Source: an uncultured virus (IMG/VR IMGVR_UViG_3300021399_000104) (taxonomy: Duplodnaviria > Heunggongvirae > Uroviricota > Caudoviricetes). From it: a DNA stretch of 64,000 nucleotides. The notes under the pieces are model-generated. The model was not told where the DNA came from, did not search any database, and saw only the letters and a list, made by a program, of their open reading frames with translations. Location of the stretch: IMG/VR virus record IMGVR_UViG_3300021399_000104. The stretch is one strand, 5' to 3'. The stretch's first letter is position 1; every line of letters starts with the position of its first letter. The translations under genes and the position numbers were made by a program. Of this stretch, positions 1-51,772 are shown one piece after another.

Positions 1-1470
1 CCTACTCATAGTTGGGTAACGCATTTTACGGCGGGTGATTCTAGGGCTGCTGGATACTGTACTGCTGGTAATTTCTGGAATGATAGTCACATTATTCGTT
101 CCCTAGTGGTGTAGCACATAACTCTTCTACAACCCAGGGTCATCGCACTCATTGGCTTGTATTGCTTTATGACTTATGGAGCGGTACTACCACTCTCGGC
201 GCAGGGTATATTGCAGGTAATTTGCACGGACTTTACCACTACATTCGTTCCATTTATCTAGTGGATTCCATGGGACGAGTACACAATCGTCATCCAGTTC
301 TAGATTTTTGTTGGCGTTAAAGTCAGGTGGTGCTTGGTGGATAGTAGTTGGTTTAATGCATAGGGAATCCTTATACTCAGTGCACTCTATTCGTTCCCTC
401 TCTTCCCTAGTGGACATGTTCGATGGGTATCTGCTACAGAAGCGACGGCTGGTGATATATTAGCACTAAGAATAGATGCTTCTGCGCCAACATTTCCACA
501 GGGTAGTTATGGTTATCTATATTTTAGGTCGAAAGATGCTCCTGGTATTAGTGAGTATATTCGTTCCCTCTTTCCTAGTGGAATAAGCTATCATTGGGCT
601 AGTACACGAAGAGGGATAACCTCTCCTTATATAGTAGTGTTTTCGCCAGGCACAGGTTGGTGGGTAGCTGGTTTGGCAGTTGGAGAAAGTATTTACGCAG
701 TGCGCGCTATTCGTTCCATATATTTCCTAGTGAGCTATACTGGACAACTGAATCCTACTCATATGGTATGGTACATAGACAGTATTTTGCCCCATATGCT
801 TCGGGTACTTTTGGAGTTGCTTGGCCACGGGAGATACATCACATTCGTTCCCTCCTCCTAGTGGACCTCGAAAGTTAGATGCATGGGACCAGGCGATAAG
901 TGCAAGTGAACAGGGTGCCGGTAGAGTTTGGGTCTGTCTTCCTGCTCTTCTCGGTTTTGTTCCAAGAGGGACTGGACATAACGATAAATTTAGTGACTTC
1001 CAACACTTTATTCGTTCCATCCCTAGTGTTTTGGTCATGCAAACCTCAGGAGAAAGGGGTGCACTTGTAGGTCAAGCAGTTTGGACCCAGATATATACTG
1101 TTTATGGTAGAGGCTGTGTATCTCAATGGGAAAAATATAGATCTGATTCTATTCGTTCCCTAGTGGAGTGAGTAGATATTTGTCAACATCAACAATATCA
1201 TCGATTGGTTATTCTAAGGTATGTGTTATTTGGCAAATGTCTTCTCTGCAGCGACCCGGTTTCATGCAATCAATGGGATTTCAATCCGAATACAGCGAAC
1301 TTTCTATTCGTTCCTTCTTTCCTAGTGATATGTCATACCTCTCTTCTACAGGGAACACAGGTCAAGCTCATTGGCGTGTAACGTTTCTTAAGTCACACTA
1401 TTCGGCCCCTATTGATCCAGGATATACTGTACTATATTACGACGCATATTTTCGACTTATTCGTTCGATA
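1..1470 (+). repeat. Array of >=10 variable coding cassettes separated by ATTCGTTCC-(pyrimidine-rich linker of up to 8 nt)-CCTAGTG junctions; truncated by the window start
   Basis: ATTCGTTC(C/G) at 94, 243, 389, 559, 709, 843, 1010, 1151, 1306, 1459; (C/T)CTAGTG at 102, 257, 406, 574, 726, 857, 1022, 1159, 1321. Period 134-170 bp. Every CCT-to-ATT distance is a multiple of 3 with no stop codon. Confidence 0.95.
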
Positions 1471-1492
1471 ATAATTAAAAAATTAAAATTAA

Positions 1493-2059
1493 ATGAAAGA
1501 AACAAATTGGTTAGAAACATTTCTTTTTCCAGATCTTCCCGGCCAGCCATACCCAGTTTATTCTGTGTCGGCCAAGGGTAAGGTTTTTAATTTAAAGTCT
1601 ATTATTTATCCGACTGTCACTTCCGTCAAGAAATTCACACGGAAGAAGCAGTTAAGGTTCAGGTCTTTACAGGCTAAGATTTTTGATGCCCTTATTAATA
1701 TTGGTTATTTTGATCCTCTGCCAGTTTACAAAGAGTTTCCGATAGTAATACAGAATCATTTACGTTTAGAGGGTCAGAAAGGGGCAGTTTATTATCTAGA
1801 TTATTTCTTTCCGACATTGTCATTAGCTGTTGAGTTAGATTCTGAGTTACATAAAGAGGACAAGGATCAGATTAGGGACAAATACTTAGAGTCTCGCCTA
1901 GGCATCAAGACATTTAGGATTAGAAATTTAGAGAAGGAGCAAGTTCAGAAAGTAAAGTTTCGGGAGTTGACTTCTTTCATGCGGAGTTTAGAGCCGAAGG
2001 AAGGATTTATTCCATTTACCTTCACTGAAAACATACGAAGAGCCAAGATGAAGCCCTAA
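1493..2059 (+). CDS. DUF559/Vsr-like PD-(D/E)xK endonuclease
   Basis: YYLDYFFPTLSLAVELDSELH...DQIRDKYLESRLGIKTFRI matches the DUF559 pattern (D-F...VE-D...H...D..RD..L...G...R). Confidence 0.75.
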   Translation: MKETNWLETFLFPDLPGQPYPVYSVSAKGKVFNLKSIIYPTVTSVKKFTRKKQLRFRSLQAKIFDALINIGYFDPLPVYKEFPIVIQNHLRLEGQKGAVYYLDYFFPTLSLAVELDSELHKEDKDQIRDKYLESRLGIKTFRIRNLEKEQVQKVKFRELTSFMRSLEPKEGFIPFTFTENIRRAKMKP

Positions 2060-2070
2060 ATTCCTAATAG

Positions 2071-2676
2071 ATGAATAAAAATAAAAGAACAGTTATGATA
2101 GAACCAGGATTTAACCCAGACAAGAAAGAAGTACAGTTGAAATTTAAGTCTGATCTTCTTAAGAGCTACTATAATAATTTGGCTGGTCTTGTATCGATGT
2201 TGAAGGAAGATTTGCCAAAGGGGACGGAAGTAACAAGAACTGATGATAATATTGCCACTATTTCTTTTCCGATTGATGGAGTGGGTAATGTAGAGGTAAA
2301 TTCTAATAGTTCGTCAGGTTTGGTTTCGATTGATTCTAGTGTTATGAACAAGGTAATTAGTTTGATTTCCAAGTTCACAGAGATGGCACTAAAGGCAAAG
2401 CTAAAGACGACAGAGTTTATACCACTGGAGGGTTACCCAATTGAAGAGTTACAGAAGGACATAATTGCGGCTGTTAAAGCAAAGCGTAACCTATGTATAA
2501 TTGACACTTATGATAGTTACCTTAATATGAAGAATGTTGACTATTCTATGCCACAATATTTTATTAATGCTGGAACTAGTGAATATTCTAAGGCAGTTGT
2601 ATTGTTGAGTTCTGGTAATCTGGAGGGTCTGAAAGAAATAATGGCACCCAAGCTAAAGAAGAATGCTTGGTATTAG
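2071..2676 (+). CDS. hypothetical protein
   Basis: 201 aa ORF followed by a terminator-like hairpin. Confidence 0.75.
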   Translation: MNKNKRTVMIEPGFNPDKKEVQLKFKSDLLKSYYNNLAGLVSMLKEDLPKGTEVTRTDDNIATISFPIDGVGNVEVNSNSSSGLVSIDSSVMNKVISLISKFTEMALKAKLKTTEFIPLEGYPIEELQKDIIAAVKAKRNLCIIDTYDSYLNMKNVDYSMPQYFINAGTSEYSKAVVLLSSGNLEGLKEIMAPKLKKNAWY

Positions 2677-13417: not shown

Positions 13418-15046
13418 ATGGAAAACAAAATCATTGAACTTGGATTAGATTCGCAAGCCAAAATTATCAATGGAGTGCGAAAAGTAGCTAACGCAATTAA
13501 AGTAACATTAGGTCCAGCGGGTCAGGCTGTTGCTATTGCTTCAGAGTTTGGGGCACCTGAAATTACTAGAGATGGGGCAACAGTAGCTAAGACGATTCAG
13601 CTTAAGGACCAGAAAGAAAACATTGGTGCTCAGTTAGTTAAGAGCGCCGCCACATTGACAGAAGAGCAGGCAGGTGATTCTACGTCTACGACATCAATCC
13701 TTATTATGGAGATGTGTGAAAGAGGACAGAGATACTTGAATGCTGGCTCTAATGTAAATGAAATCAAGTCAGGTATGTTGAAGGCTTCTGGATGGGTCAA
13801 GAAATACATTAAATCCAAGGCCATTTCCATTGACGGTGACTTGGAGAAAATTCGTCGAGTTGCTACAATATCTGCTAACAATGATCCTCAAGTTGGTGAT
13901 TTGGTAGTAGAATGTATGAAGCAAGTTGGGGTGAATGGTGTAATTACGGCCGATATGAGTTCTGGAGTTGATACTAACATTGAAGTAACGACAGGAATGA
14001 AATTGGAACGTGGTTGGTCTTCTCCTCAATATGTAACAGAAGCCGAAACAGGGAAATGTATACTTGAAAATCCTTATGTCGTTGTAATTGGTGAGAAGCT
14101 TCAGTCAGTCGCACAGATCCTCCCATTGATACAACAGATTATGCAGGGTGGTAAAGGTAGACCATTCCTCATTATTTGTGACGATATTAATGATGTAGTT
14201 AATACAACATTGATTATGAACACTTTACAGGGAGCCATTTCATGCTGTGTTATTAAGGGAGTTGATTTTGGAGACTCTCGTGAAAACATTATGCAGGATA
14301 TAGCGATCTCTTGTGGTGGAACATATATTTGTGAAAAGAATGGTTTGACTACGACTGATGCTAAGCTTGAACATCTTGGATCGGCTAAAAGAGTAGTAGT
14401 TAGTCGTGATGAAACTATTATCTATGAGGGCTATGGTGATCCTGATGATGTAGCTAAGAGGACAGAGATTCTTAAGGCTAGGTTGAGTGATTCTTCCATT
14501 AGTTCTTATGACAGGTCGAAGTTTGAGAAGAGAGTTGCTAATCTATCTGGTGGTATTGGTATTATCAAAGCAGGTGGAGCGACAGAAGCTGAAAAGATGA
14601 ATAGAAAGGCAACAATTGAAGATGCTATTCTCGCTTCTAAATCAGCTCTAGCAGAAGGTTGTGCGCCAGGTGGAGGTTATGTTTATCTCATGGCTTCTCA
14701 AGAGGTAAAGTCTGATAAGAAGTTCTGGAATAGTCTCGAAGGTGATGAGAAGGACGGTGCCATGATCGTTTTCTCCTCTCTTCCTGTTATTCTGAAGACG
14801 ATTGCTAATAATAGTGGTCGGTCGGGAGATGTAATTCTGGAAGAGGTATTGAAATCTAGGAAAAAGAATGCCTGGGGTTATAATGCGAAGACTAAGAAAT
14901 TCGGATATCTGTTAAAAGAGGGTATTCTGGATTCTGCTAAAGCTCTTCGTGTTGCCTTGGAAAATTCTGTGTCAACTGCTTCTATGATTCTTCTTACGGA
15001 TTGCACTATAGTTAACGACGAAAGCGATAAAGAAAAAGAAGAATAA
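13418..15046 (+). CDS. groEL: chaperonin GroEL-like
   Basis: VTLGPAG, ITRDGATVA, AGDSTST, ISANND, GGATEAE, IEDA, PGGG and GILDSAKALRVALEN motifs. Confidence 0.95.
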   Translation: MENKIIELGLDSQAKIINGVRKVANAIKVTLGPAGQAVAIASEFGAPEITRDGATVAKTIQLKDQKENIGAQLVKSAATLTEEQAGDSTSTTSILIMEMCERGQRYLNAGSNVNEIKSGMLKASGWVKKYIKSKAISIDGDLEKIRRVATISANNDPQVGDLVVECMKQVGVNGVITADMSSGVDTNIEVTTGMKLERGWSSPQYVTEAETGKCILENPYVVVIGEKLQSVAQILPLIQQIMQGGKGRPFLIICDDINDVVNTTLIMNTLQGAISCCVIKGVDFGDSRENIMQDIAISCGGTYICEKNGLTTTDAKLEHLGSAKRVVVSRDETIIYEGYGDPDDVAKRTEILKARLSDSSISSYDRSKFEKRVANLSGGIGIIKAGGATEAEKMNRKATIEDAILASKSALAEGCAPGGGYVYLMASQEVKSDKKFWNSLEGDEKDGAMIVFSSLPVILKTIANNSGRSGDVILEEVLKSRKKNAWGYNAKTKKFGYLLKEGILDSAKALRVALENSVSTASMILLTDCTIVNDESDKEKEE

Positions 15047-19272: not shown

Positions 19273-20313
19273 ATGACAATTGAAAAGAAATCACTTCTCG
19301 CTGTTGATCTTGGATATAGTAATGTGAAAGTTTGTTACTATGATGACGCTGGCGCACTTCAATTTGATAAGTATATTTCATCAGTCTCTAAAGTAGATAC
19401 ACCAATTGAACTAGACGATGATATAATGTTCCAACTTGAGGGAAATACCTACGTCATGGGAGCTTCAGCATTAAAACTGTCGTCAGATCTCCTTATGCCT
19501 CTCGAAACATTTGAAGATATGAAAGCAGTTTACCCTATCTGGCTGTCCTATCTGTTTAAGAAATATGGTGGTCGATCAAAATTTAAACATGTTGTGGTCG
19601 GACTATCTATGGCTTTTTCAGATAGAGTGGATGAACTACTGGACTCCCTCTATGAAACACTTATGATTAGAGAGGAAAATTTCTTCCTGGTTCTGACACA
19701 AGGACTGGCCGCTTCATATGCAATTAATACGAGAAACTTAGATATCTCAGAAACATCCTCAGGACATTCAGGAAGTAATGGACCAAAAAACTATATACTT
19801 CTTGATGGCGGATTCTTAACTTGTGATTTTTGTGCCGTGGTCGCTGGAAAAGCCTCCGCCGGTGCAGCTATCGGAGTACCTAATACCGGATGTATCTGTA
19901 TTGCATATAATATTATGGACTATCTCTACAAGGAATATTCAATGAAAGTCTCTATTAAAGAAGCACAGAATATTCTCGATGCTGACGGAATTTTTGTTAA
20001 ACGAGGTAGAAAATATGATATCTCCGACCAAGTCAAAACCTTTACACGACAATACTTGGGCAATATCTTCTCATTACTGGAAGATAAATACGGATCATAT
20101 CTCGACTCCTCCGATAAATTATTGGTGGTTGGTGGCGTGTCCTATCTACTCCAAAAATATCAAAACGATCCAGAAGTAATAAAAGAGATAGAAAAGCATT
20201 TCTCACGATCTTTTATTCAATGGCCGGAAGATCTAGGCGAATACTATAACTGCTATTCCTATCTTAAAGCCGCTGAAGAAAAAATCTTACCAGGAATGTA
20301 CGCGAATGAATAG
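19273..20313 (+). CDS. ParM/StbA-like actin-fold ATPase
   Basis: AVDLGYSNVK (phosphate 1), LLDGGFLTCD (phosphate 2), VVGG (adenosine). Confidence 0.8.
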   Translation: MTIEKKSLLAVDLGYSNVKVCYYDDAGALQFDKYISSVSKVDTPIELDDDIMFQLEGNTYVMGASALKLSSDLLMPLETFEDMKAVYPIWLSYLFKKYGGRSKFKHVVVGLSMAFSDRVDELLDSLYETLMIREENFFLVLTQGLAASYAINTRNLDISETSSGHSGSNGPKNYILLDGGFLTCDFCAVVAGKASAGAAIGVPNTGCICIAYNIMDYLYKEYSMKVSIKEAQNILDADGIFVKRGRKYDISDQVKTFTRQYLGNIFSLLEDKYGSYLDSSDKLLVVGGVSYLLQKYQNDPEVIKEIEKHFSRSFIQWPEDLGEYYNCYSYLKAAEEKILPGMYANE

Positions 20314-21897: not shown

Positions 21898-24045
21898 ATG
21901 ATGAACGTAAAAAAGAGAAACGGCTCTATTGAAGAGTTCGACGTTAAAAAGATTAAGAGGGGAATTCGAAATGCCATGAAGACTGGTACTGGCGAATATT
22001 TCCCCAGACTAATCGATGCTATTATCAATGAGGTAAAGGATCAATTCAAAGACCAAGAGACTATTACTGGTCATGATATTGATACTATAGTCATTAAGCG
22101 CCTCAAAGATTATGGTCAAGCATCAACCGCAACAAACTACGAGAGATACAAGACTCTAAAATACTATCAAAAGTCGAATAGTATTGTAGATAATGAAATC
22201 GATGGTCTTGTTGCTGGTACTAATGTAGCTGTTATTGATGAAAATTCAAACAAGGACTCTCATCTTATCTCTACTCAACGAGATTTGATTGCAGGCATCC
22301 TTTCTCGCGACTATGCTAATAGAAAGATTATGCCTACCGATATCTTACAGGCCCATCAACTTGGCTTATTGCATTATCATGACTCGGATTATGCAATTCA
22401 TAGAGGAATCTTTAATTGCCAATTGATTAATCTGAAAGATATGCTTCAAAATGGTACAGCAATCAATGGAAAAAAGATTGAAACACCAAAATCCATTCAA
22501 ACTGCTGCAACAATTGCTACTCAGATTAGTCTGCAAGTAGCCAATGGACAATATGGAGGGCAAACTTTTAGTCTTTCTCACCTTGCACCGTTTGTGAGGG
22601 TTTCCTACAATAAGTATGTCAAAAAACTGACTGATAACTATATAGAACTAGGTAAAACACCGGACGAGGAATTGATTAAGGCTCAAGCTGAACAATTTAC
22701 TCGTGATGAGGTTCGAAGCGCTGTACAGACTATTCAGTTTCAGGAAAATACATTCTCTTCCACAAATGGTCAGACTCCTTTTGTATCTGTCTTCATGTAT
22801 ATTAATGAAGAGCCAGAATATAAGAAGGAGACGGCTATGCTTATCGAAGAAACTATTAAGCTTCGATATCAAGGAATGAAGAATAAAGATGGCGTATATG
22901 TTACTCCAGCATTTCCAAAGCTCTTGTATGTGTTGGATGAAAACAATGTGCCAGAAGATTCAGAGTATCGATATCTTACTGACTTAGCCGTTAAGTGTGC
23001 TGCCAAAAGAATGAATCCTGACTTCATTTCGGCCAAGATCATGCGCAGAAACTATGAAGGAAACGTATTTCCTTGCATGGGATGCAGAAGTTTCCTCGCA
23101 CCTTGGAAAGATGAAAATGGAAACTATAAATTCTATGGTAGATTTAACCGTGGCGTAGTAACACTGAATCTCGTTGATGTTGCTCTGTCAGCCAAGAAGA
23201 ATATTGATAGCTTCTGGTTAATCCTTGACGAGAGACTTGAACTCTGTAAGAAAGCCTTAATTTTAAGAACTCAGCTTCTTAGAGATGCGGTTTCAGATGT
23301 TAGTCCTATCCATTGGCAAGATGGCTCAGTGGCTCGTCTCAAACAAGGGGAAAAGATAAATAAGTATCTTGACGGCGGCTATAGTTCTATTTCATTGGGC
23401 TTTATTGGTCTTCATGAAATGTGTATGGCTATGTTTGGAGAAAGTCTGACGTCAAAAGTTGGCAGGGAATTTGCATTAAAGGTATTAAGATATCTTTCTG
23501 ATACTTGTGCTAAGTGGAAGACTGAAGATGATCTTAATGGCGCCTCATTATATGCAACACCATCTGAGTCACTTTGTTATAACTTTGCTGAGAAGACAAA
23601 GAAGCGTTTTGGTGAAATTAAAGGTATCACAGATAAAATGTGGTTTACTAACTCATATCATGTAACACCAACTGAACCAATTGATGCCTTCTCCAAGCTT
23701 AAGTTTGAAGCTGAGTTTCAGAACATTTCTAAGGGTGGTGCAGTTTCTTATGTTGAAGTACCAAACATGATGGATAATCTTGAGGCACTCTCACAGATAG
23801 TAAACTTCATGTATGATAACATTCAATATGCAGAAATTAACACTCGTTGTGGTGATGTATGCTCCGCATGTGGATATACAGGTGAAATAGATACTGACGA
23901 AAATGGCGTTTGGACCTGTCCTAATTGTGGATGCCAGGATCGCGAAAAGCTAACGGTCACCCGCAGAACGTGTGGGTATATCGGGTCCACCTTCTGGAAC
24001 AAGGGCAAAACCCAAGAAATCAGCCAGAGAGTATATCATATTTAA
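21898..24045 (+). CDS. nrdD: anaerobic (class III) ribonucleoside-triphosphate reductase with ATP cone
   Basis: VKKRNG ATP cone, MGCRS, CxxC..CPNCG, RRTCGYIG glycyl-radical motif. Confidence 0.97.
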   Translation: MMNVKKRNGSIEEFDVKKIKRGIRNAMKTGTGEYFPRLIDAIINEVKDQFKDQETITGHDIDTIVIKRLKDYGQASTATNYERYKTLKYYQKSNSIVDNEIDGLVAGTNVAVIDENSNKDSHLISTQRDLIAGILSRDYANRKIMPTDILQAHQLGLLHYHDSDYAIHRGIFNCQLINLKDMLQNGTAINGKKIETPKSIQTAATIATQISLQVANGQYGGQTFSLSHLAPFVRVSYNKYVKKLTDNYIELGKTPDEELIKAQAEQFTRDEVRSAVQTIQFQENTFSSTNGQTPFVSVFMYINEEPEYKKETAMLIEETIKLRYQGMKNKDGVYVTPAFPKLLYVLDENNVPEDSEYRYLTDLAVKCAAKRMNPDFISAKIMRRNYEGNVFPCMGCRSFLAPWKDENGNYKFYGRFNRGVVTLNLVDVALSAKKNIDSFWLILDERLELCKKALILRTQLLRDAVSDVSPIHWQDGSVARLKQGEKINKYLDGGYSSISLGFIGLHEMCMAMFGESLTSKVGREFALKVLRYLSDTCAKWKTEDDLNGASLYATPSESLCYNFAEKTKKRFGEIKGITDKMWFTNSYHVTPTEPIDAFSKLKFEAEFQNISKGGAVSYVEVPNMMDNLEALSQIVNFMYDNIQYAEINTRCGDVCSACGYTGEIDTDENGVWTCPNCGCQDREKLTVTRRTCGYIGSTFWNKGKTQEISQRVYHI

Positions 24046-24057
24046 TTTTAGTTACGA

Positions 24058-24549
24058 ATGAACTACTTCAAAATTAAAAAATATGATATAGCTAACGGAA
24101 AAGGAATACGAACTTCCATTTTTGTTAGTGGCTGTACCTTCCATTGTGAGGATTGCTTTAACTATGAGGCTTGGTCCTTTAGTTCAGGTCATAAATTTGA
24201 TGAAGATGCGAAGAAAGAATTGTTTGACCTGTTAGGTGATGAGCAGTGTAAAGGATTAAGCGTATTAGGAGGAGAGCCTTTAATGCAAGGTCAGGAACTG
24301 TTAGACCTATTAAAAGAGGTAAGGCTGACATTTCCAGATAAGAACATTTGGCTTTGGACAGGATACTATATGAACGAGTTGAATGACCTTCAAAAAGAGA
24401 TTGTCTCTTACTGTGACTATGTAATTGACGGTCGATTTGAAAAAAGTCAGGCGTATAAAAAGTACTTGTTTAAAGGTTCTGGCAATCAGACAATATGGCA
24501 ACGTCAGGAGAACGGTGAATTTGTAGTGAGTGAATATAACGACATGTAA
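24058..24549 (+). CDS. nrdG: anaerobic RNR activating radical SAM protein
   Basis: NGKGIR.SIFVSGCTFHCEDCFN, LGGEP, IDGRF, GSGNQ. Confidence 0.95.
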   Translation: MNYFKIKKYDIANGKGIRTSIFVSGCTFHCEDCFNYEAWSFSSGHKFDEDAKKELFDLLGDEQCKGLSVLGGEPLMQGQELLDLLKEVRLTFPDKNIWLWTGYYMNELNDLQKEIVSYCDYVIDGRFEKSQAYKKYLFKGSGNQTIWQRQENGEFVVSEYNDM

Positions 24550-26504: not shown

Positions 26505-26576
26505 TGAGTTGTGGTGTAAGAGGTAACACTATAGATTTTGGTTCTATCATTCTGGGTTCGAATCCCGGCAACTCAA
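26505..26576 (+). tRNA. tRNA-Gln (TTG)
   Basis: acceptor TGAGTTG/CAACTCA, D stem GTGT/ACAC, anticodon stem ATAGA/TCTAT with loop TTTTGGT, T arm CTGGG-TTCGAAT-CCCGG; CCA not encoded. Confidence 0.92.
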
Positions 26577-26582
26577 CTAAAT

Positions 26583-49603: not shown

Positions 49604-50830
49604 TTACGACAAACATAAAATGTGTGGATGAACTACAACACCCAGTACACCATCTGCAAAAGCATTTGGCTTACATTTACGAAGAATATTATAGGAGCCA
49701 TTAACATCAGCATTTATTAACACTCCAGTGGAAGACTTATATAGTCCTCTCTTTATTCTTTTTCCAAGATAAGAGTCATGTTCCTTTATTTCTTCCATAT
49801 CCAAGAAACTGCACTTACTTGTATATTCTTCTGAAACAATTTCAACAGAAATTCCTTCCATTTCACATTTATAAGTTAACATACGAATAAGCTTGTAATG
49901 TGGAATAGATACAAAATTCTGATTATTAACTTTTCCGATATTAGTGTCTTGTTTCCATCCCTTGTTATTGCCTATTATCAGGGTATTTATATTCTCAGAA
50001 ACTAGGTGATTCACTATATATCTACTTGCTTTATGAAAATAATCGTTTATCTTAAATTCCCTCTTTCTACATAGTCTTCTAATTCTTTTTGTTGTTTTAA
50101 AAGGCTTATCCTGAGGTATTCCAGATCTAAGGTAAGCGTTTCTTTTGTTATAGTAGTGGTTAATTGATTTGACTTTTTTGCCACTAATTACAAAGGGAAC
50201 ATTACCTACTATATTGGTTGTTATGGTCGCCAAGTTATTTACTCCCAGATCAATAGAAGCATATCTATTATTATCTGCCTTCTTCATTGGATCTGGCCTA
50301 GTATATATAACTTCAACAACGATATAACCAACTCTAGGAACTATTCGCACTTGATTTATATTAGTCCTATCTATTTTAGCCTTCAATTTGATTTTAATAC
50401 CTTTAACTTTTGATAAAACGATATATCCCTTATCTAACCAAATTTTACTTATAACATTATTAGCATAAATTGCGGGAAATCTACCTTTTTCTGTATCTAG
50501 GTATTTTGGTAATTTAGGTCTTCCTTTATATTTACTTGGATTTTTCTTATAATCCGCAAGTAAGGCAAAGAAAGACTTAAAATTCTGATCTACCACTCTC
50601 ATAGTCTGTTGAGAAACCGCAGATGGAATGGCATAATAATCATATTGTTCTTCTTCTTGAAATTTTTTAACAAGGCTAAAATAAGATAAGTATTTTCCAT
50701 TTTTGGTAAACTCTTGGCGAATATGATATAAAGTAACATTATATACATTCTTAGATTTGTAACATAGTTCATCAAGAATTCTATATTCCTTGCTACTTTC
50801 TTTTATTACATGTTTTTCTACTAATCTCAT
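49604..50830 (-). CDS. tnpB: RNA-guided endonuclease TnpB
   Basis: SIDLGVNNLA (RuvC-I), EEYTSKCSFLD, INADVNGSYNILRK (RuvC-III). Confidence 0.92.
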   Translation of the reverse strand: MRLVEKHVIKESSKEYRILDELCYKSKNVYNVTLYHIRQEFTKNGKYLSYFSLVKKFQEEEQYDYYAIPSAVSQQTMRVVDQNFKSFFALLADYKKNPSKYKGRPKLPKYLDTEKGRFPAIYANNVISKIWLDKGYIVLSKVKGIKIKLKAKIDRTNINQVRIVPRVGYIVVEVIYTRPDPMKKADNNRYASIDLGVNNLATITTNIVGNVPFVISGKKVKSINHYYNKRNAYLRSGIPQDKPFKTTKRIRRLCRKREFKINDYFHKASRYIVNHLVSENINTLIIGNNKGWKQDTNIGKVNNQNFVSIPHYKLIRMLTYKCEMEGISVEIVSEEYTSKCSFLDMEEIKEHDSYLGKRIKRGLYKSSTGVLINADVNGSYNILRKCKPNAFADGVLGVVVHPHILCLS

Positions 50831-50833
50831 TTT

Positions 50834-51403
50834 TTATTTCTTCTCCATTTCTTTAATTAGTTTTTCAGTCATTCGTTTAGTCCTTCTCTTTCCATACAAA
50901 CGAGCACAGAAAGAAGTAATTATAGAAACGAAATCCTGCATTAAATCATCCCGTTCGTCTTCCATTATATTTACAATCTCTATAGATCTTTTTTGAAGTT
51001 CTAGGAGCTTTTGTATATAATTAAGACCAAAACGAGTTAACCTATCCTTATGCTCTACTACTATTACATCAATACAGTTATCTAGTAATAGTTTTTCAAG
51101 TTTAGGTCTAGAATCATTTAAACCCGAGCCTATTTCTTTTACTACCCTAGATACTTTATAACCTTTAGCATTACAGTAGGAGATAAGTCGATCTACTTGA
51201 GACTCTAGGTTACTCTTATTTTCTGAACTTGATACTCTAGCATAAATGGCATAGGTTTTATCTTTCTTTTCATCTGTCTCTAATATCCAGATGTGACCAG
51301 TAAGATCTTTTTCATATTTTACCTTACCTTGCTTAATCCAATTCCAAATCGTTCTATAAGTAACCCCTTGGATCTTGGCATACTTAGAAATCTTATATCT
51401 CAT
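50834..51403 (-). CDS. tnpA: IS607 transposase TnpA (MerR-like HTH plus serine recombinase)
   Basis: GVTYRTIWNW HTH; IYARVSS, EIGSGLND.R, EHKDRLTRFG, SFCARLYG. Confidence 0.95.
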   Translation of the reverse strand: MRYKISKYAKIQGVTYRTIWNWIKQGKVKYEKDLTGHIWILETDEKKDKTYAIYARVSSSENKSNLESQVDRLISYCNAKGYKVSRVVKEIGSGLNDSRPKLEKLLLDNCIDVIVVEHKDRLTRFGLNYIQKLLELQKRSIEIVNIMEDERDDLMQDFVSIITSFCARLYGKRRTKRMTEKLIKEMEKK

Positions 51404-51772
51404 AATTCTAATAATTTTAATTAAATTCACCTATAAGAAATCAAGTACCATCCTAAGCGCGTTTTGTTTATTTTGGAGATAAAAAATAAGGAAGAAAGTC
51501 TATAATTCTTCCTTTTATTATTAAATATTTTATAAGTCTATTTAATAATCCAAAAAAGAAAAAAGAAGCAATACATGATATGATTAGCACGGTAGTTCTT
51601 GCATGATAATTATGAAATAGAAGTAACCAATGCTATTAGCTTCATGTATTGCTTTAACTATATGAATGAGTCTAATGATTTGAGCGGTAAAATAGTGCAT
51701 AATTCCCTTAGTATAATAGAAGTAACCAACTCAATTAGCTTGACTCATCCATATATTAGGAATTGGGGCCTT

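Follow-up and report, generated by a model that had tools for sequence, protein, structure and literature searches.

How does a phage come to carry a row of protein-coding segments that have neither start nor stop signals, and what could such a row be for? The question is raised by the left end of a 64,000-nucleotide stretch of an uncultured virus of the Caudoviricetes (IMG/VR record IMGVR_UViG_3300021399_000104; hereafter the window), where ten units are arranged head to tail on the plus strand between positions 1 and 1467. An initial annotation, made from the letters alone, described this CRISPR-like array as a library of at least ten silent, frame-preserved coding cassettes. Our analyses confirm the silent coding-cassette array as an observation. 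We think it probable that the array is a silent library of receptor-binding tips, the cassettes of which would be installed by two-sided, copy-type recombination into a giant tail gene. Judged by its genes, the source appears to be an uncultured jumbo phage of the animal gut, whose nearest cultured relative infects Bacteroides.

The complete units start with NCTAGTG (eight times CCTAGTG and once TCTAGTG) and end with ATTCGTTCC, the end of the final unit being ATTCGTTCG. Nine exact copies of ATTCGTTCC, plus the ATTCGTTCG at 1459, were counted; elsewhere in the window there was no other exact copy, and the minus strand had none. The pattern ATTCGTTC-N(0-20)-CTAGTG occurs nine times, always on the plus strand and within 94-1327, where shuffled sequences lead one to expect 0.01. 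The start-to-ATT distances of the nine complete units (141, 132, 153, 135, 117, 153, 129, 147 and 138 nt) are all multiples of 3, and each of these units is open solely in the frame CCT AGT G..ATT CGT TCC, with stops in the other five frames; the incomplete first unit, too, is open in that frame. The frame is kept at 3 of 9 junctions (lengths 22, 19 and 22 nt). The frame rule, the lack of start and stop signals and the frame-breaking junctions, all put forward in the initial annotation, were borne out. No excess of promoter-like sites was found in the array (5, against 5.4 by chance). Tandem Repeats Finder did not detect the array because the unit interiors are unrelated.

The junctions are not assembly errors, since they recur unchanged in independent assemblies. 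Public runs were consulted as contigs (Logan), not as raw reads: a probable source sample (X1), its metatranscriptome (X5), the same sample in a later year (X3) and a cattle-gut sample of another study (X4); nothing was concluded from the uncovered parts of X3, X4 and X5. A contig from the probable source run shows 0 differences to window 73-2200, and an X4 contig spanning 258-405 and 574-1262 shows substitutions without insertions or deletions.

A scan of metagenomes yielded two contigs of another project, L132 and L133, which together with the window provide 46 cassettes. The expected frame is free of stops in 42 of the 46, compared with 0-9 of 46 for each other frame, and the multiple-of-3 rule holds for 9/9 cassettes in the window, 5/5 in L132 and 30 of the 32 parsed in L133. 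The interiors are nevertheless highly divergent, with a median pairwise nucleotide identity of 0.48 and a maximum of 0.67. The borders behave differently: CGT makes up 16% of the Arg codons and TCC 8.7% of the Ser codons in the phage genes, whereas CGT is used at 49/49 unit ends and exactly ATTCGTTCC at 33/49. Of the 36 listed substitutions that separate the window from X4 (five further ones stand outside this count), not one falls in a junction, where about 4 would be expected. Because rare codons are invariant at the unit ends and the junctions took no substitutions, the border motifs appear to be constrained at the DNA level, beyond the need of the protein.

The linkers between the borders tell a complementary story. 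Some linkers in L133 are intact, reading ATTCGTTCC GTTTGTGCTTTT CCTAGTG, that is, IRS-VCAF-PSG in frame, and others are progressively decayed. Since L133 holds both the intact and the stepwise decayed forms, the linkers of the window are best read as decayed remnants of the tail codons GTT TGT GCT TTT (VCAF). The DNA 3' of the last unit, U9, is A/T-rich, without the canonical tail or a close stop. One cassette of the second contig (L133:3002-3184) has a complete foreign end, ..YRVRPCVTF plus a stop, ahead of an FRS border, and looks as if it had been captured, tail included, from another tip gene.

Where is the gene to which these cassettes belong? Searched for exact matches to the first 50 nt of the window, IMG/VR returned one contig of 88,987 nt, the last 59 nt of which are the first 59 nt of the window; a constant-border scan and a protein-based locus search of IMG/VR led to this same single contig. 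The idea that the contig is circular with the window as its start was rejected, as it has just those 59 nt of the window. CheckV rates the contig as 24% complete, and the genome should therefore measure several hundred kb. The contig carries a 2501-codon frame, open at its end (locus L121), which runs as ..NFTIF-CCT AGT G.. in frame into cassette U0, so that a gene with the PS..IRS-bounded segment exists, as the initial annotation had supposed. No additional arrays were found in the rest of the window or in the 88,987-nt contig. About 0.5 kb 5' of the giant gene (L121:607-2089) lies an N-terminal fragment of an IS1595-type zinc-ribbon/transposase with an overlapping open reading frame (ORF) of 348 aa that belongs to no family.

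With the last 555 residues of the giant protein as query, HMMER retrieved 164 hits at E<=1e-3 from 1.84 billion representatives. These are proteins of two sizes, giant ones of 1.9-2.4 thousand aa and small ones of ~300 aa, most of which end in ..HNWFLPSxGELARxYWY..F..YWSSTE..AW.V.F..G..K..VR[AP]VxAF-stop. The cassettes match the ~45 last residues of these homologues, from F|PS.. through ..VR[AS] (F|PS..WSSTE..VR|VxAF). A hidden Markov model (HMM) was made from the last 62 residues of 129 homologues ending in F, leaving out P0001, 18 homologues that end differently and the two ORFs of arrays, P0053 and P0082. Above 5 bits it recognised 25 of the 43 units when read in their open frame, 12 of which passed 10 bits, against 0/43 in each other frame and 3/129 shuffles; the resemblance to C-type-lectin (CLec) variable regions is therefore found in the claimed frame alone.

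The fold was approached through an AlphaFold (AF2) model of the small homologue P0006, built on an alignment of 40 of the 150 listed hits (predicted local distance difference test score, pLDDT, 87.7). Structure comparison with VIA-align gave 24 matches at Z>=2, nearly all with the C-type-lectin fold. Among them are the Bacteroides fimbrial tip 4eps (Z 7.0), the C-terminal (DUF1566) domain of Legionella Lcl (Z 4.1, 27% identity) and Mtd (Z 2.1), as well as InvE, FGE/EgtB/SenA, intimin, invasin and the carbohydrate-recognition domain of the mannose receptor. The family profile agrees with 4eps_A (E 1.5e-5) and Lcl 8q4e_A (E 0.053), and NCBIfam adhesin_Lcl with P0006 (E 0.032). On this model, each cassette would supply another version of the three final strands, with their loops, in a C-type-lectin-like receptor-binding tip. 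The nearest cultured relative of the giant protein is gp27 of Bacteroides phage BS-TP1 (PQ571274), a 2187-aa protein recorded merely as hypothetical, with 23% identity over 81% of the protein. Its neighbours are tape-measure, baseplate-hub and tail-fibre genes, and by homology to a protein sitting among tail genes the ~2500-aa protein is presumably a tail-module protein.

Support for a transfer between array and gene comes from U0, the first cassette of the window, which occurs in several contexts. Its sequence agrees at 103/103 positions in L121 and 102/102 in the window, is the same in L132 and L133, and in the expressed and silent settings is identical at 146/146. CTAGTG and ATTCGTTCC bound U0 in L121, L132 and L133, as they bound the cassettes. 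On L132, U0 is preceded by four further cassettes, Ua to Ud, which extends the count upstream as the initial annotation had proposed, and these are preceded by an unrelated gene and a terminator-like hairpin, not by the tip gene. The tail after U0 on L132 reads IRS-VCAF-stop, the canonical end of the family. A hairpin, GTGCTT-TCT-AAGCAC, lies over the stop codon of this expression-site tail, and its right arm is missing at the silent junctions. On L133, the region 3' of the VCAF stop (147-392) holds a 165-nt spacer that is far better folded than shuffles (z -4.2). A tRNA of 67 nt follows (Rfam 43.4 bits; ARAGORN calls none in L132 or L133), and the second array begins 12 nt past it. Protein records from diverged strains show the orders Uc-Ud-U0'-(U1' in the next frame) for P0053 and Ux-U0''-LVV-stop for P0082, which indicates that U0 is an old array resident between Ud and U1.

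In X1, U0 forms a separate 146-nt contig (depth 44.9) that ends exactly at the outer edges of CTAGTG and ATTCGTTCC. On its right it continues either into U1 and the following units of the window (a 23-kb contig, 0 differences, depth 33.3) or into a 3.4-kb contig (depth 31) with junctions 375, 831 and 2367 nt past the end of U0, matching L133. On its left stands a 2.9-kb contig (depth 30.6) with the end of Ua and the Uc|Ud junction, its loose-end letters being those of L132. Thus, U0 has two left contexts (the giant gene and Ud) and two right contexts (U1 and the canonical VCAF-stop). The depth of U0 is smaller than the sum of its continuations (33.3 + 31 = 64.3), which could be noise or could mean that U0 occupies the expression site in only some of the population. 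In the metatranscriptome X5, a 1927-nt RNA contig (rec14, depth 11.1) comprises 1685 nt, U0 and then GTTTGTGCTTTCTAAGCACTCC.., i.e. VCAF-stop, the sequence 3' of U0 beginning with GTTTGTGCTTTCTAA; over the silent array the same data give patches only, at a depth of ~2.7.

Cassette-level gain or loss between relatives was observed directly. In X4, U2 is joined to U4 with exactly U3 gone, the joint 405->574 skipping 168 nt with 9 nt ambiguous, and U0 is preceded by other cassettes. In X3, a U0 variant with 9 differences is followed by another linker and another cassette, and a unit-4 fragment has a different 5' part. Searches for the unrelated gene and Ua-Ud in the 88,987-nt contig and the window found neither, and a scan of IMG/VR for the IRS-VCAF junction gave 0 hits. 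A loose motif scan of IMG/VR gave single chance matches only, among the matches listed. A stricter two-junction scan of IMG/VR returned seven loci (L122-L128), which were rejected as an unrelated repeat protein and not arrays. In these sequences of 42-64 kb, a phage gene contains ATTCGTTC 19-27 times at spacings that are multiples of 9, and it probably encodes a periodic repeat protein.

How do these pieces fit together? Quite likely, the simplest genome has two loci: one with the unrelated gene, Ua-Ub-Uc-Ud-U0-U1..U9 and a DUF559-type gene, and another with the giant gene, U0, VCAF-stop, spacer, tRNA and array 2. Array 1 would then comprise about 14 silent cassettes, of which window 1-1467 represents the distal part, U0-U9. 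The window's array is most likely stand-alone and silent rather than placed directly behind an expressed gene, and one cassette, U0, most likely sits both in the silent array and at the expression site. A less likely pairing has the giant gene followed by U0-U1.. and ending in IRS-LVV-stop, plus Ud-U0-VCAF-stop; this would still need recombination at both motifs.

On our favoured reading, the expressed gene, located elsewhere in the genome, would consist of the constant part, CTAGTG, a cassette, ATTCGTTCC and GTT TGT GCT TTC TAA (VCAF-stop), followed 3' by the structured spacer, the tRNA and the second array of at least 32 cassettes. A cassette would be installed by two-sided, gene-conversion-like copying with crossovers in the two short invariant motifs, so that the silent donor stays put and the gene retains its own tail and stop. 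As catalyst one may think of template switching or of microhomology-based break repair, with the neighbouring DUF559 nuclease as a possible initiator. A two-sided replacement of the copying type is suggested because the U0 copies are identical and their identity ends at the motif edges. It would also account for the architecture of the arrays: the motif-to-motif length is a multiple of 3 because only the swapped segment must keep the frame, the linkers are free to decay and break the frame because the crossovers fall in the two motifs, and the cassettes need no start or stop because the replacement is two-sided. We infer that copying runs from array to gene, that the contexts pair as described, and that switching is ongoing and frequent. 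The proposal in the initial annotation that stored tips are swapped through short constant ends gains support from the two contexts of U0 and from the exact ending of the duplicated stretch at the motifs.

A number of observations weigh against this reading. A different cassette at the expression site was seen in no data set examined, and among 5.8 billion proteins searched the giant protein had no close variant, the 3 and 1 sequences returned sharing at most 40% identity with it; the array ORF P0053 had none in that set either. Because contigs rather than reads were at hand, the way in which its left and right contexts connect across the 146-nt U0 is inferred, and L132 reads Ud-U0-VCAF-stop, which, if this contig is not chimeric, favours the other pairing. 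A homology of 6-9 nt is very short for known recombination pathways. No recombinase lies beside the array, the only one in the window being the TnpA of an IS607-type element 49 kb away, although a reverse transcriptase (RT) or a recombinase could lie in the remaining ~60% of the genome. As to the fold, Foldseek against the PDB found nothing at E<=0.001 for the P0006 model, and Pfam DUF1566 (PF07603) gave no hit at E<=1 for P0001, its last 555 aa or four cassettes. Since the Pfam model gives no call, we file the domain as C-type-lectin-like and DUF1566/Lcl-related, not as a DUF1566 member. The DUF1566/Mtd-like C-type-lectin fold assigned in the initial annotation is favoured by the model and by the similarity to 4eps, Lcl and Mtd, and the assignment does not extend to the Pfam family. 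Finally, 41 of the 46 parsed cassettes are open and 5 are broken by stops or a frameshift. Orthologous silent cassettes of the window and X4 differ by 9 synonymous and 27 non-synonymous substitutions, close to the neutral expectation of 24% synonymous. The stored copies thus seem to drift or diversify freely, with no sign of purifying selection.

The near-neutral and partly broken copies would also suit an explanation in which the arrays are orphan or fossil tips, accumulated by unequal crossing-over, by tandem duplication at the 3' end of a tip gene or by serial displacement through incoming tips, as in orphan CdiA-CT/Rhs modules, with rare illegitimate reuse over evolutionary time and no dedicated switch. 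Full linkers reading IRS-VCAF-PSG in frame look as if whole gene ends had been duplicated through the near-repeat CTTTC(C)TA present at both borders, one L133 cassette keeps a foreign tail and stop (..VRPCVTF-stop), and neither a recombinase nor an RT is seen. This view leaves unexplained why 42 of 46 cassettes remain open despite their divergent interiors and why the motifs invariantly use rare codons and took none of the 36 substitutions. A 3' motif and a multiple-of-3 rule are useless for one-sided deletion or displacement and needed for two-sided replacement; moreover, what precedes array 1 is an unrelated gene with a terminator-like hairpin instead of the tip gene, and the expressed and silent U0 are identical over 146 nt in one sample. 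We therefore regard orphan tips as rather unlikely. A mere artefact, in which a long repeat protein is split by sequencing or assembly errors or by chimeric assembly, is scarcely credible: although contigs break inside U0 and L132 is possibly chimeric, the junctions and frames are identical across assemblies of three studies and two protein records, matching contigs lack insertions and deletions, and linker lengths vary over 0-14 nt, unlike homopolymer slips. Choice at the RNA or ribosome level, by alternative splicing, cut-and-ligate or translational bypass from one long transcript with the DNA unchanged, would find some encouragement in the sequence with which each unit starts, a pyrimidine tract and then AG resembling a splice acceptor, and in a phosphoesterase/RNA-ligase-like gene 2 kb downstream of the array. 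Yet U0 is present as DNA beside the constant part and beside VCAF-stop (L121, L132, L133 and X1), there is no ribozyme-sized intron, no constant exon stands upstream of the window's array in the favoured pairing, and we know of no translational bypass over 150-1400 nt, which together make this mechanism highly improbable.

A further alternative is suggested by the relatives, which use a diversity-generating retroelement (DGR). Directly 3' of BS-TP1 gp27 lie a gene for a four-helix-bundle (Avd-like) protein and then an RT gene, and a template copy of the last 135 nt of gp27 (..HWSSTE..VVRPAVAY), located 835 nt downstream, departs from them at template adenines, so that the same scaffold is a DGR target with a variable repeat (VR) and a template repeat (TR). 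Among the IMG/VR loci encoding the domain, an RT lies 0.6-2.7 kb downstream in 48 of 65, and several of the 17 loci without one are truncated by contig ends. A second HMM match ~0.7 kb downstream at family loci is the DGR template and not an array, and no cassette arrays were found beside the 64 other family loci in IMG/VR. The BS-TP1 Avd as a query gave 0/65 at these loci, a result that is uninformative on the presence of Avd. Part of PMC12386605 deals with DGR cassettes. By analogy, in a system descended from the DGR of these relatives, cassette transcripts could be templates that an RT in the unseen genome copies faithfully, that is, retrohoming without mutagenesis, with ATTCGTTCC(+GTTTGTGC..) as the homing signal and the stop-codon hairpin acting like a DGR cruciform. 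The 3' motif is located where the VR/TR homology of BS-TP1 stops, the expression-site hairpin lies within the strongly structured spacer, and low-depth RNA contigs cover part of the silent array. The C-terminal variable region of a CLec-type fold is itself a typical DGR target. However, neither RT nor Avd was found in the window, L121, L132, L133 or the 88,987-nt contig, and within these ~153 kb no DGR-clade RT is near target or template. PF00078 gave 0 RT in the 88,987-nt contig, PHROGs and Pfam gave none for the window ORFs, and a tblastn query with the RT of BS-TP1 reached a best E of 0.13 in the window, L121, L132 and L133. An adenine-only TR/VR difference was not found either: the U0 copies differ at 0/146 positions, which excludes adenine mutagenesis for them, and the closest trio of cassettes differs at all base types without an adenine signature. 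Retrohoming is accordingly improbable in our view.

Which genes, then, could serve a copy-type installation of tips? The 188-aa protein encoded directly 3' of the array scores 20.6 bits for DUF559, equal to the cut-off, and 19.4 bits for PvuRts1I-like_N; in its Atlas clusters (0.94-0.97), 77-100% of the members carry DUF559, some of them inside inteins. This gene may be a candidate break-maker or an unrelated selfish gene. It allows a bolder and doubtful version of the favoured reading: a MAT/HO-like programmed host-range switch, in which the DUF559 nuclease or another enzyme encoded in the unseen genome would cut the expression-site hairpin or tail, repair from the at least 46 cassettes would proceed through the 6-9-nt motifs, and one burst would contain varied tips, the lineage having exchanged its DGR for stored diversity. 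If that were true, the depth of U0 would mean that only about one-third of the sample genomes now hold U0 at the expression site. The remainder of the window encodes GroEL, an anaerobic ribonucleotide reductase, an NAD-dependent ligase, a dUTPase and an actin/ParM-like protein, a content that would suit a jumbo phage whose host is an anaerobe of the gut. It also holds an IS607-type pair on the minus strand (49604-51427), consisting of the serine recombinase TnpA and TnpB (OrfB_IS605 plus Cas12f-like TNB). The features are collected in Table 1.

Table 1. Positions of the cassettes, related loci and other genes discussed in the text (window coordinates unless another sequence is named).
Feature	Position	Strand	Remarks
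Cassette U0	1..102	+	last 102 of 146 nt (..PTHSWVTHFTAGDSRAAGYCTAGNFWNDSHIIRS); same 146 nt also 3' of the constant part of the giant gene
Cassette U1	102..251	+	150 nt, single open frame
Cassette U2	257..397	+	begins TCTAGTG; HMM 9.2 bits
Cassette U3	406..567	+	precisely missing in related phage of another study (X4)
Cassette U4	574..717	+	..SYHWASTRRG..VVFSPG..AVRAIRS; HMM 13.2 bits
Cassette U5	726..851	+	
Cassette U6	857..1018	+	
Cassette U7	1022..1159	+	
Cassette U8	1159..1314	+	
Cassette U9, last of the array	1321..1467	+	end ATTCGTTCG; HMM 10.5 bits
Nine junctions	94..1327	+	ATTCGTTCC, pyrimidine-rich linker of 0-9 nt, CTAGTG
DUF559-type PD-(D/E)XK, homing-endonuclease-like gene (predicted)	1493..2059	+	188 aa, directly 3' of array
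GroEL	13418-15043		
Actin/ParM-like partition protein	19273-20310		
NrdD/NrdG	21898-24546		
tRNA-Gln	26505-26577		
IS607-like TnpA	50834-51427	-	Resolvase N-terminal domain
L132 (1373 nt)			unrelated gene end, short intergenic stretch, Ua-Ub-Uc-Ud-U0, ATTCGTTCC GTT TGT GCT TTC TAA, spacer, tRNA
L133 (5722 nt)			starts exactly at CTAGTG of U0; VCAF-stop, spacer, tRNA as in L132; then at least 32 cassettes to contig end
BS-TP1 DGR	L199 15416-16382		VR, Avd-like gene, TR inside or beside RT gene start

Three ways are known by which phages redirect their receptor-binding proteins, namely DGR mutagenesis, invertible segments and slow modular exchange, and the tip of Bordetella phage BPP-1, Mtd, is the DGR-diversified CLec-fold example. 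The literature that we searched held only DGR papers and unrelated work, with no such arrays described for phage receptor-binding proteins. Our findings suggest that what is new here is the use of silent-cassette gene conversion, a known process, on a DGR-type phage tip. If this is true, there would be a fourth retargeting route, in which tips stored in a frame-guarded library of dozens of unrelated cassettes are copied into a single giant tail gene. Since the same scaffold is DGR-diversified in relatives, it would offer a natural comparison of stored with generated diversity. The invariant 6-9-nt borders could provide a design rule for tip swaps in proteins of this family and a starting point for tracking down the recombination machinery.

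The comparison with known systems helps to define this route. Like the DGR systems of BPP-1 Mtd and of BS-TP1 gp27-Avd-RT, it involves a homologous scaffold, and the variable segment (..HWSSTE..VRP..) again forms the extreme C-terminus of a giant tail-module protein; this segment alone would be replaced, an invariant sequence marks its 3' border and a hairpin lies just downstream. Unlike a DGR, it showed no RT, no Avd and no single template in the ~153 kb covered, its donors are many and unrelated, the copy is faithful (0/146) and the diversity is stored. Shufflons and other invertible segments (Mu Gin/G, P1 Cin/C and R64 Rci) likewise store alternative C-terminal parts of one host-recognition protein. 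In contrast to them, all motifs here are on the plus strand, with no inverted copies and no adjacent invertase, the only resolvase-type gene being the IS607-like TnpA, and dozens of alternatives stand against 2-7. The distinction from both DGR mutagenesis and shufflons drawn in the initial annotation is supported. Orphan CdiA-CT/Rhs modules are start-less C-terminal arrays led by a constant/variable border motif and used by recombination, according to part of PMC3482391. The cassettes resemble them in being start-less C-terminal modules that begin with a border motif, and differ in having a conserved 3' border and a frame rule, no own stop and no immunity gene, and in that the favoured array does not lie 3' of its main gene, the position typical of those orphans.

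Close parallels are vlsE/vls of Borrelia, pilE/pilS of Neisseria and the tprK donor sites of Treponema, in which one expression site is served by arrays of promoterless, start-less cassettes flanked by short direct repeats. Here, too, such arrays are homologous to the variable part of one gene, and direct repeats bound both. A non-reciprocal copy that leaves the donor intact, as in vls and pilS, would fit the two left and two right contexts of U0 at similar depth and the RNA reading U0-VCAF-stop, given the favoured pairing. The differences are that the flanks here are 6-9 nt, against 17 bp in vls, that a whole cassette appears to have been copied, and that the cassettes are mutually unrelated, against about 90% alike in vls, pilS and tprK. 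Yeast mating-type switching (HO, MAT and HML/HMR) also copies a silent donor to an expressed locus, and a homing-endonuclease-type gene stands beside the silent array in the window; unlike HO, this nuclease is predicted from its sequence and may be an unrelated selfish gene. In the phage, of virulent jumbo type, the variable product is a receptor-binding tip and not an immune target. The likeness to the antigenic variation of bacteria and parasites would thus be a formal one, with the same principle serving attack instead of evasion.

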